DNA of 64,000 bases from an uncultured Clostridium sp. (GCA_905199855.1 CAJKHY010000004.1:2449-66448); one strand, 5' to 3'. Counted from the first letter of the stretch, positions 25,708 through 28,861 are shown. Notes: generated by a model from the letters alone, not told the origin. Numbers and translations are program-made.

Positions 25708-27489
25708 CTATTCACAAACATAATTGTTGGTTTTAAAATATTCTTTTTGTTCATTTATAGTAGTATGGACTCCAAATAATGATGCTAGATTTTTGTCTAT
25801 TTTATTTACATCAAAGGTGTATGTATAATTATATTCATTTTTACTGTCTTTATTTACTTTAGCCGTAAATCCTTTGTATTCACTATATTGTCCCGTTTCT
25901 ACTCCAATAATATATCTATAATTAGCAATGCCATCTTTTGCTTTGGTAGTATTTCCTTTATAAATTTTATTTATGTCTATAGTTTTAATATTTTCTTTAT
26001 CAAAATGAACATAGTATGTTGTAATGATATCTACTTCTGCTACATTTTGTGTATAAGTGCAGACATAAGTGTTTTTATCTTTTTTTGTTTCTTTTTCTTT
26101 TTTTGGAGTATTCGTTACTATTAAGGCTATTATTAGAATTAATAATATAATACTTGCTATGATTATTTTAATTTTTTTTCCAACTTTACCACCTAATAAT
26201 CTTTCTAATTTTTCTTCTATTATATAAATGTTTTGACAACTCATAAATAATAAGACATCTCCTTTATGTTTTAAAAGTTTTTGTTCATCATTTAGGGTTA
26301 TCATTTCAGCATTGTTTAAATTATCTAGTATTAATTTAGAACTTATTCCTTTAAAATCATTTGGATTTTCTCTACCCTTGGCTATATCAAAAAGGTATAC
26401 ATAGTCTGCTTTGTTTAGGCTATCCGCAAATGATTTATAAAAATCTTTTACTCTTGAATAGGTATTTGGCATGAATAGGGCTATTATTTTTTTGTTTTTA
26501 TATTTGTTTCTTGTAGCTTCGATTGTAGCTTTTATTTCTGTAGGGTGATGGGCATAGTCATCTATGATAATTGTGCTTTCTATTTCTTTTACTTGATATC
26601 TTCTTTTTGCACCAGTAAAAGTTTCTAGTTGTTCTATGACATCATATTTATTTAGTCCTAAGTTATTACATATACCAATTACGGCAAGGGTATTTAATAC
26701 CATGTGATCCCCAGCAAGTTTTATTTTAATGTTTCCATAGAATTTATCATTTATATATACATCAAAACAGGTATAACCTTCATGGTATTCAATATTTTTA
26801 GCAATTATATCGTTATTATCATTAAGTCCATAGTACATGGTGTCTATATGGGTTGTTAGTTTTCTTACTATTTTATCATCACCACATAATACGGTTTTAA
26901 ATTTAGTGTTATTAAGCAAAGATTGATAGGCATCAGCCATATCATTTATATCTTTGTAATAGTCTGTGTGGTCTAATTCAATGTTAGTTATTACTGACAT
27001 ATATGGGTGATAGGCAAGAAAATGTCTTTTATATTCGCAAGCTTCAATGACAAAGTAATCACTTTCTTTGTTTGATTTACCTGTTCCATCACCTATTAGG
27101 TAGTTGCATCCAATAATGTTATCAATGACATGACTTAACATGCTTGAGGTTGTTCTTTTACCATGACAACCACTTATGGTTATTGTTTTAAATTTTTTGG
27201 TTACTTCTCCTAGCATTTCGTTGTATTTTAATATTTTTAGATTTTTTTCTTTGGCTCTTTGTAATTCAATATGATTTTCATCTAAAGCTGCTGAATATAC
27301 AACGATTTCATCGGTTAGTTGATAGGAACTATCATTATATATTTTTATGTTTCTTAATTCTAATTCGTTTTCAGTAAATTTATGCTCTTTGTAATCATCA
27401 TAACCGATTACTGTGTTTCCTAAATCATTTAAGATACAAGCCAATCCTGACATTCCTGTACCTTTTATACCAATAAAGTAGTACTTCAT
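25708..27489 (-). CDS. murC: UDP-N-acetylmuramate--L-alanine ligase (MurC) fused in frame to a C-terminal TM helix and about 130-aa extracytoplasmic domain
   Basis: N-terminus MKYYFIGIKGTGMSGLA, P-loop ISGCHGKRTTSSM, Mur ligase middle and C domains to about residue 445; then KIKIIIASIILLILIIALIV TM and a soluble tail; no stop between. Confidence 0.75.
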   Translation of the reverse strand: MKYYFIGIKGTGMSGLACILNDLGNTVIGYDDYKEHKFTENELELRNIKIYNDSSYQLTDEIVVYSAALDENHIELQRAKEKNLKILKYNEMLGEVTKKFKTITISGCHGKRTTSSMLSHVIDNIIGCNYLIGDGTGKSNKESDYFVIEACEYKRHFLAYHPYMSVITNIELDHTDYYKDINDMADAYQSLLNNTKFKTVLCGDDKIVRKLTTHIDTMYYGLNDNNDIIAKNIEYHEGYTCFDVYINDKFYGNIKIKLAGDHMVLNTLAVIGICNNLGLNKYDVIEQLETFTGAKRRYQVKEIESTIIIDDYAHHPTEIKATIEATRNKYKNKKIIALFMPNTYSRVKDFYKSFADSLNKADYVYLFDIAKGRENPNDFKGISSKLILDNLNNAEMITLNDEQKLLKHKGDVLLFMSCQNIYIIEEKLERLLGGKVGKKIKIIIASIILLILIIALIVTNTPKKEKETKKDKNTYVCTYTQNVAEVDIITTYYVHFDKENIKTIDINKIYKGNTTKAKDGIANYRYIIGVETGQYSEYKGFTAKVNKDSKNEYNYTYTFDVNKIDKNLASLFGVHTTINEQKEYFKTNNYVCE

Positions 27490-27490
27490 A

Positions 27491-28861
27491 TTAGTACTCA
27501 CAATTTCCTGGAGTTCTAGGATATGGGATGACGTCTCTTATGTTTTCAACACCTGTTAGGTAGATTAGTAATCTTTCAAAGCCCATACCAAAGCCTGAGT
27601 GAACGCATCCACCAAATTTTCTTAGGTTCATATACCATTCCATACCTTCTTTTTGCATGTTTAATTCTTCCATACGTTTTGCTAGTTTATCATAGTTTTC
27701 TTCTCTTTGAGAGCCACCCATTAATTCTCCAGCACCAGGTACTTCTAGGTCTACTGCGGCAACAGTTTTGCCGTCTTCATTTTGTTTCATATAAAATGCT
27801 TTGATATCTTTAGGCCAATTTTTGATAAATACAGGCCCATTAAAGTATTCTGTGATATATTTTTCATGTTCTTTGGCAATATCTTCTCCATACTCTGGTT
27901 CAAATTCCCATTTGATGTTAGCTTTTTTTAGGATAGAGATTACTTCTTCGTGGTCAATTCTTGTAAATTTAGAATTAATCAATTTAGTTAGTTTGTCTAT
28001 TAATCCTTTTTCAACATACGTGTCTAAGAATTTCATTTCATATGAAGCATGCTCTAGAACATATGATGTAACGTATTTTAACATTTCTTCCATGATATCC
28101 ATGTCTTTTTCTAAATCACAAAAGGCAATTTCTGGTTCGATCATCCAAAATTCGGCAGCGTGAGTTTTGGTATTTGAGTTTTCGGCTCTAAATGTTGGAC
28201 CAAATGTGTAAATCTTTTTATATGCTAGAGCGAATGTTTCTCCTTGTAGTTGACCCGATACTGTTAATGATGTTTTTTTGCCAAAGAAATCTTTGCTATA
28301 ATCTACTTTGCCTAAAGATGCTACTTTGTCTAAATCAAGGGTTGTTACTTGAAACATTTCCCCTGCTCCTTCACAGTCTGCTCCCGTTATAATTGGGGCA
28401 TGAAAGTAAACATATCCTCTTTCTTGGAAGTATTTATGTATTGCATAAGCCGCTACGCTTCTTACTCTAAATACAGCTTGAAATAGGTTTGTTCTTGGTC
28501 TTAGGTAAGCTTGATCTCTTAAAAATTCTCTTGTATGTCTTTTTGGTTGAATAGGATAATCATCTGGACAATCTCCTAATAAAGTAATGTTTGTAAGTTG
28601 TAGTTCAAAAGCTTGTCCTTCTTTTGGTGAGGTATTAACGATTCCTTCAACTTTAATTGCTGAACCTATTTTAAATTTTGTTATTTTATCAAAATTAGAT
28701 AAATTATTGTCATAAACAACTTGCAAGGTATTAATGATTGTACCATCATACATATCAATAAAGCAAATATTAGCTTGTTTGCGGTGGTTCTTTATCCAAC
28801 CACATATTTCTACTTTTTTTCCTAAATAATCTTTTTCGTATAAATCTTTAATATCTAACAT
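27491..28861 (-). CDS. asnS: Asparagine--tRNA ligase
   Basis: N-terminal OB-fold, class II motifs (FRAE, GGSQREE, GFGMGFERL); about 456 aa from MLDIKDLYEK. Confidence 0.85.
   Translation of the reverse strand: MLDIKDLYEKDYLGKKVEICGWIKNHRKQANICFIDMYDGTIINTLQVVYDNNLSNFDKITKFKIGSAIKVEGIVNTSPKEGQAFELQLTNITLLGDCPDDYPIQPKRHTREFLRDQAYLRPRTNLFQAVFRVRSVAAYAIHKYFQERGYVYFHAPIITGADCEGAGEMFQVTTLDLDKVASLGKVDYSKDFFGKKTSLTVSGQLQGETFALAYKKIYTFGPTFRAENSNTKTHAAEFWMIEPEIAFCDLEKDMDIMEEMLKYVTSYVLEHASYEMKFLDTYVEKGLIDKLTKLINSKFTRIDHEEVISILKKANIKWEFEPEYGEDIAKEHEKYITEYFNGPVFIKNWPKDIKAFYMKQNEDGKTVAAVDLEVPGAGELMGGSQREENYDKLAKRMEELNMQKEGMEWYMNLRKFGGCVHSGFGMGFERLLIYLTGVENIRDVIPYPRTPGNCEY

Follow-up and report, generated by a model that had tools for sequence, protein, structure and literature searches.

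Runs of eight or nine adenines (A8, A9) are documented to slip both in replication and in transcription (PMC1088944). In homopolymer frameshift fusions and contingency loci a one-base change between A8 and A9 alters the reading frame, near-identical strains differ, and the different lengths give different proteins (PMC1088944). In transcriptional-slippage genes (Thermus dnaX with A9, Shigella mxiE, and insertion sequence (IS) elements with A8 or A9) such a run stands at the junction of overlapping frames. Mur ligases are also found naturally in frame with the product of a neighbouring gene, in the conserved fusions MurC/Ddl (NF011171) and MurE/MurF (NF008896), which join two cytoplasmic enzymes of the same pathway, and small exported lipoproteins of ~150 amino acids (aa) with an N-terminal anchor or lipobox are known from YehR and DUF1307-like proteins (2joe; S. 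pneumoniae NP_344732.1, 2mvb). The locus described here resembles each of these in part. It lies in a 64,000-nucleotide (nt) stretch of DNA from an uncultured Clostridium sp. (GCA_905199855.1, CAJKHY010000004.1:2449-66448; the window), where murC, encoding a peptidoglycan ligase, is read in frame into the gene of a small exported membrane protein. The two genes are normally separate and overlapping, and most probably they were fused by a slip in a run of adenines, as a strain-level accident and not as an evolved enzyme architecture.

The open reading frame (ORF) is uninterrupted on the minus strand from 25708 to 27501, as the original prediction had it, and comprises 597 aa when read from a GTG start. 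The true start probably lies 12 nt further downstream, at the ATG at 27489, which all gene calls in relatives and the exact-match database entry use and which gives 593 aa. The MurC portion proved complete, as had been proposed. The Pfam domains Mur_ligase (PF01225), Mur_ligase_M (PF08245) and Mur_ligase_C (PF02875) all matched within residues 6-420, the full MurC spans residues 6-431, and the NCBIfam murC equivalog TIGR01082 scored 381.3 bits against a cut-off of 335.1, which identifies a full-length MurC. PDB structures of MurC matched this part down to E = 2e-65. The MurC/Ddl model NF011171 scored 199, far below its cut-off of 1015. A soluble MurC usually has ~440-490 aa and ends after domain 3, and the orthologues have 440 aa; the 593 aa of the window protein depart from this length because of a frameshift.

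In the separate-gene state, the small gene lies in the +1 frame and its TTG start precedes the murC TAA stop by 17 nt. The junction in most relatives reads GTTGGAAAAGAAAATTAA, with MurC ending ...GKVGKEN-TAA and the small gene starting at the TTG. The tract within it is GGAAAAGAAAATTAA (A4GA4) in most relatives, A9 in a sub-clade and A8 in the window. Tract state was scored in 26 sequences, the window and 25 loci, L027 included. Eleven had A4GA4 and two genes (L001, L005, L007-L009, L012, L014-L016, L018, L027), six had A9 and two genes, with MurC ending ...GKKN* (L006, L013, L017, L024-L026), and nine had A8 and were fused (the window, L010, L011 and L019-L023 among them). Neither A7 nor A10 occurred in the 26. 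When the junction was rebuilt in silico, A9 yielded two genes, and A8 took MurC into the small ORF and left only MEKKLK* in the TTG frame; with A7 or A10, MurC would end ...KLK* and the small gene would be silenced. The base missing from A8 puts the frames of murC and the small gene in register, hence the fusion, and as read from these sequences the fusion is the result of one base lost from a run that had only recently become a pure homopolymer. The Shine-Dalgarno-like AGGTGG ahead of the TTG was present in 21 of the 26 sequences, the other five having AGGTGA (L007, L014-L016, L027), and it persists in L008 and L009 despite the deletion of the murC body.

A stop codon after a 440-aa MurC, followed by a separate gene for 156-159 aa with its own TTG and Shine-Dalgarno sequence, was found in L001, L005-L007, L012, L016, L018 and L024-L027. 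Two genes were present at 17 of the 25 murC-type junctions compared, and the fusion is therefore not conserved across diverged orthologues. On the contigs of L001, L005, L006, L007 and L024-L026 a 440-aa murC was called, and the small gene was called separately with a 17-nt overlap of the murC end. A single named genome was recovered, that of Clostridium sp. CAG:762 from the human gut (scaffold L027), and it has the same two-gene reading at the junction; a junction-string scan of the genome collection returned nothing, since this scaffold reads GGTGATAAAG and not GGTGGTAAAG, and it was recovered by a protein-pattern scan. In the more distant L002-L004 murC is missing from this position and asnS is followed directly by the small gene. 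L008 and L009 retain only the final 13 codons of murC, which separate asnS from the small gene and carry the ribosome-binding site and start codon of the latter. Compared between clades as separate genes, murC had omega values of 0.05-0.12 and the small gene of 0.15-0.17; as separate genes, both are under purifying selection. The original prediction, of a MurC carrying a membrane anchor and an outward-facing domain, had itself suggested comparison with murC orthologues, and the stop and separate small ORF found in relatives refute an evolved architecture of that kind.

The tail of the ORF begins with KIKIIIASIILLILIIALIV, residues 439-458 of the 593-aa form, which is the highest Kyte-Doolittle 19-aa window in the protein, and continues for 135 aa with 14.8% K, 13.3% T, 11.1% N and 10.4% Y; the hydrophobic helix and the Tyr/Lys/Asn-rich domain were thus correctly described from the outset. 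When the last 158 residues were searched alone, they matched free-standing proteins of 156-159 aa beginning MEKKIKII, and proteins P0001-P0005 begin MEKKIKII at the ancestral TTG. A profile search of 1.84 billion representative proteins gave 17 family members, nearly all of ~150 aa, and in none of the 17 was there a fusion to MurC. The family alignment showed that in some distant members a lipoprotein-type signal (lipobox) replaces the signal-anchor helix, and that two cysteines are conserved throughout. In the AlphaFold model (mean predicted local distance difference test score 89.8) a disordered linker connects the N-terminal helix to a compact alpha/beta domain. Foldseek matched its fold significantly to only two structures, 2mvb (S. 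pneumoniae, E = 1.2e-4) and 2joe (E. coli lipoprotein YehR, E = 1.3e-3), both with a probability of 1.00 and template-modeling scores of 0.48-0.58, and an N-terminal anchor or lipobox is common to them. The tail resembles YehR and DUF1307-like lipoproteins in fold, length, export and N-terminal anchoring, but differs in having no Pfam match at the sequence level and an identity of only 14%. No Pfam family matched the tail or 20 family members at E <= 1, beyond noise on the hydrophobic helix, and an NCBIfam scan of the tail found no family. Because it has free-standing homologues, is a separate gene in relatives, belongs to a family without a Mur ligase and has a fold of its own, the tail is, on these sequences and this model, an independent, exported, membrane-anchored protein and not an extension of MurC.

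We propose that the ancestral overlap was GGAAAAGAAAATTAA, that a G-to-A change would have produced the uninterrupted A9 in one sub-clade of a gut species related to Clostridium sp. CAG:762, and that slipped-strand mispairing would have shortened A9 to A8 in the strain of the window. The murC stop would then be out of frame, and MurC would read straight into the signal-anchor helix and the ectodomain. The cause in the sequence, the polymorphism of the tract and the separate-gene state in relatives were all observed. The product would be a 593-aa protein composed of a cytoplasmic MurC, a linker of ~10 residues, one membrane helix and an external domain, in contrast to the natural Mur-ligase fusions in that its partner is exported and its occurrence strain-specific. 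Membrane tethering, as originally claimed, thus holds as a literal reading if the ORF is translated, and fails as an architecture, the allele being a sporadic, strain-level frameshift. Fusion would cost MurC no more than its last two residues and would leave the small protein its anchor and ectodomain; with the coherent topology, this suggests that the allele may be tolerated and nearly neutral. Since A8 and A9 runs are documented slippage sites (PMC1088944), some separate products could still be made, and by analogy with the transcriptional-slippage genes, slipped transcripts at the A8 run would yield both fused and separate products. The analogy differs in that the run here is not conserved, and the common allele, A4GA4, cannot slip.

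Several points weigh against this account. Expression of the fused protein, its membrane insertion and its activity are predictions, and the A8 state was read from assembled contigs, in which a homopolymer consensus error is possible. L013, 99.9% identical to the window and with the same IS inserted at an identical position, has the tract at A9; outside the IS, it differs from the window by one substitution and by the tract, which is the only gap. When JGI and ENA metagenome contigs were scanned without regard to allele, seven hits were obtained, five with A4GA4, two with A9 and none with A8. L010, an ENA contig of the window haplotype with A8, has only ~5x coverage, and the contigs of this haplotype may derive from the same biological sample. 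These points, together with the fact that homopolymers of such length are a classic site of consensus indels, favor a reading in which the true tract is an A9 homopolymer, shortened to A8 by an error of sequencing or assembly, and the genome itself carries two separate genes and encodes no fused protein. We consider an error unlikely, and A8 probably a real allele. The exact 593-aa protein was found on several contigs (ENA ERZ1304488, Logan SRR5558253, NCBI), and a second 593-aa haplotype (P0016), differing at six residues, recurred in five separate runs (SRR27108392, SRR27108398, SRR27108424, SRR27108426, SRR17806421) without discordance. The three A9 contigs of the sister haplotype were equally concordant, tract state being uniform across every contig within each haplotype, and the lack of A7 and A10 among the sequences scored also speaks against error. 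Compared with L024, its closest A9 relative, the window had 29 substitutions and exactly one gap in 4797 nt, namely the tract. The window contains 30 A/T runs of at least 8 bases in 64 kb, 21 of them inside intact long ORFs. With the single gap relative to L024, these in-frame runs rule out a general homopolymer-error problem in the window.

In a neighbor-joining tree of murC and the small gene, the two A8 haplotypes were not sisters, which suggests at least two contraction events. The two differ mutually at 22 sites, and each differs from the A9 haplotype of L024-L026 at 16-17 sites. We read the tract as a hypermutable run that has contracted at least twice. A stronger reading would be that A8 is a real and viable allele with at least two origins, that an essential peptidoglycan ligase tolerates membrane tethering through a linker of ~10 residues, and that the A9/A8 run is a de novo expression switch, through slippage in replication and transcription, for a surface protein beside an apparatus resembling a type IV secretion system (T4SS); in this full form we find it distinctly doubtful. 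Highly improbable is a phase-variation or recoding switch, in which slippage among A8, A9 and A10, in replication or transcription, toggles the small protein between fused, separate and off, and possibly regulates the adjacent T4SS-like apparatus. In its favor, tract length varies between near-identical strains, the non-sister A8 haplotypes within the A9 clade suggest repeated events, the three tract lengths have three distinct expression outcomes in silico, and productive slippage in transcription is possible on runs of A9 and A8 (PMC1088944). The length variation is indeed that of a contingency locus, with A8 and A9 in 99.9%-identical sequences and A8 on two haplotypes. Unlike the tracts of contingency loci, however, this one is a recent derivative of a non-slippery sequence, A4GA4, and is not conserved. 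The interrupted form was found in 11 of 25 loci, and most of the species, including the CAG:762 scaffold, has it, so that the tract is not conserved by selection. In addition, the A7 and A10 alleles are missing from the sequences scored, and A8-A9 runs are common in this AT-rich genome (30 in 64 kb). A selected bifunctional protein, in which selection would have given MurC a membrane anchor and an outer domain acting as sensor or partner, is hardly credible and largely refuted by the orthologue comparison: the ORF is intact, its topology of cytoplasmic enzyme, single helix and exported domain is coherent and the allele persists in several samples, but the fusion is absent from all diverged relatives compared and from every family representative, was created by a one-base change in a slippery run, retains right at the junction the conserved Shine-Dalgarno sequence and TTG for independent translation, and involves a small gene that occurs without murC in related genomes.

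A homopolymer frameshift in a gene overlap is an already well-known kind of event, and this fusion does not reveal a new kind of cell-wall enzyme. It gives reason for caution, as a one-base homopolymer change in a gene overlap can mimic an exotic domain architecture in an AT-rich genome, and comparison of a few orthologous loci suffices to resolve such an apparent architecture. If the A8 allele is real, the locus is a small natural example of overlapping genes becoming fused, and MurC may tolerate membrane tethering. The features of the locus and its surroundings are listed in Table 1.

Table 1. Positions in the window of the fused genes, their junction and neighboring features.
Feature	Position	Strand	Remarks
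murC coding sequence	26179..27489	-	Residues 1-437 of the fused ORF; stand-alone 440-aa gene in relatives
Arg112 codon in the MurC P-loop (GCHGK-R-TTSS)	27154..27156	-	Thr in 15/15 other loci and in solved MurC structures
AGGTGG, Shine-Dalgarno-like sequence	26189..26194	-	5 nt upstream of the TTG
Ancestral TTG start of the small gene	26181..26183	-	Out of frame with the window ORF; would give MEKKLK*
A8 homopolymer (T8 on the + strand)	26172..26179	-	Site of the one-base loss fusing the frames; A4GA4 or A9 in relatives
Signal-anchor/transmembrane helix of the small protein, predicted	26116..26175	-	From hydrophobicity; residues 2-22 form a helix in the AlphaFold model
Extracytoplasmic domain of the small protein, predicted	25708..26115	-	135 aa and stop; YehR-like fold; two family-conserved cysteines
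IS copy 2 (1679 bp)	24013..25691	+	Perfect 30-bp terminal inverted repeats; 431-aa transposase, HTH_38; in the spacer between the small gene and the next gene
Conjugation-type (T4SS-like) gene cluster	12327..23891	-	Immediately downstream of the small gene
TraC-like protein	20350-20928	-	TraC-like annotation on orthologues
VirB4-like ATPase	18569-20353	-	
CHAP hydrolase	16479-18536	-	
M23 peptidase	14479-15645	-	
IS copy 1	2809..4487	+	100% identical to copy 2

The P-loop of the window MurC departs from the G-x-x-G-K-T/S pattern, reading GCHGKRTT where 15 relatives and the aligned PDB MurCs have GKT. No other amino-acid change is confined to the window haplotype, and Arg112 stands at the residue that should contact Mg-ATP. 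The substitution may impair enzyme function, or another locus in the genome may compensate for it; it lowers confidence in the full activity of the window allele, not in the identity of the gene as murC.

The stop of asnS and the ATG of murC are one base apart (27487-27493 in the window). This gap and the 17-nt overlap between murC and the small gene suggest that all three genes form one operon with coupled translation. In L024, a relative lacking the IS, the interval from the small gene to the next gene contains no terminator-like site.

Exactly 16 bp separate the stop codon (25708-25710) from the end of the second IS copy, as the original prediction had stated. Its further suggestion, that this proximity bears on the 3' end of the ORF, was not borne out. 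L019-L022 are fused and have an intact, IS-free spacer, and L013 has the same IS with the genes unfused; the insertion is thus independent of the fusion, and the IS is ruled out as its cause. The empty site is visible in L024 and L019. HTH_38 was matched at residues 18-60 of the transposase, and the single transposase and inverted repeats fit the IS30 family; the rve-type DDE domain was not matched at E <= 0.01 (Pfam). The two copies lie 21 kb apart in direct orientation and bracket the T4SS-like cluster together with dacA, PAP2, VanZ and bipA genes, an arrangement that could behave as a composite-transposon-like unit or serve as a substrate for deletion. Copy 2 separates the small gene from the cluster and may exert polar effects.

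The T4SS-like cluster also encodes large membrane proteins, and neither a relaxase, a coupling protein nor an integrase was detected in it by Pfam. The small gene stays beside the cluster in loci without murC, and its chromosomal position is conserved in relatives as distant as L002 (~70% nucleotide identity), an unusual constancy for a mobile element. An integrated element made up of the small gene and the cluster, flanked by a repeat of the murC 3' end, was considered and rejected, as the window has no second copy of that end.

Synteny with L008 (420-490), L009 (250-320) and L017 (reverse strand) breaks at nearly one point, at ~26221-26228 of the window. This shared breakpoint, ~45 nt upstream of the start of the small gene, may mark a hotspot of recombination or the edge of an element; its sequence was not repeated in the window. 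L017 has the beginning of a HAD-like gene running in frame into the final 16 murC codons. Long ORFs of the window contain, in addition to the murC tract, 20 A/T runs of 8-9 bases (e.g. 5492-5500 and 54397-54405), each a potential site of slippage frameshift in this AT-rich (~29% GC) genome.

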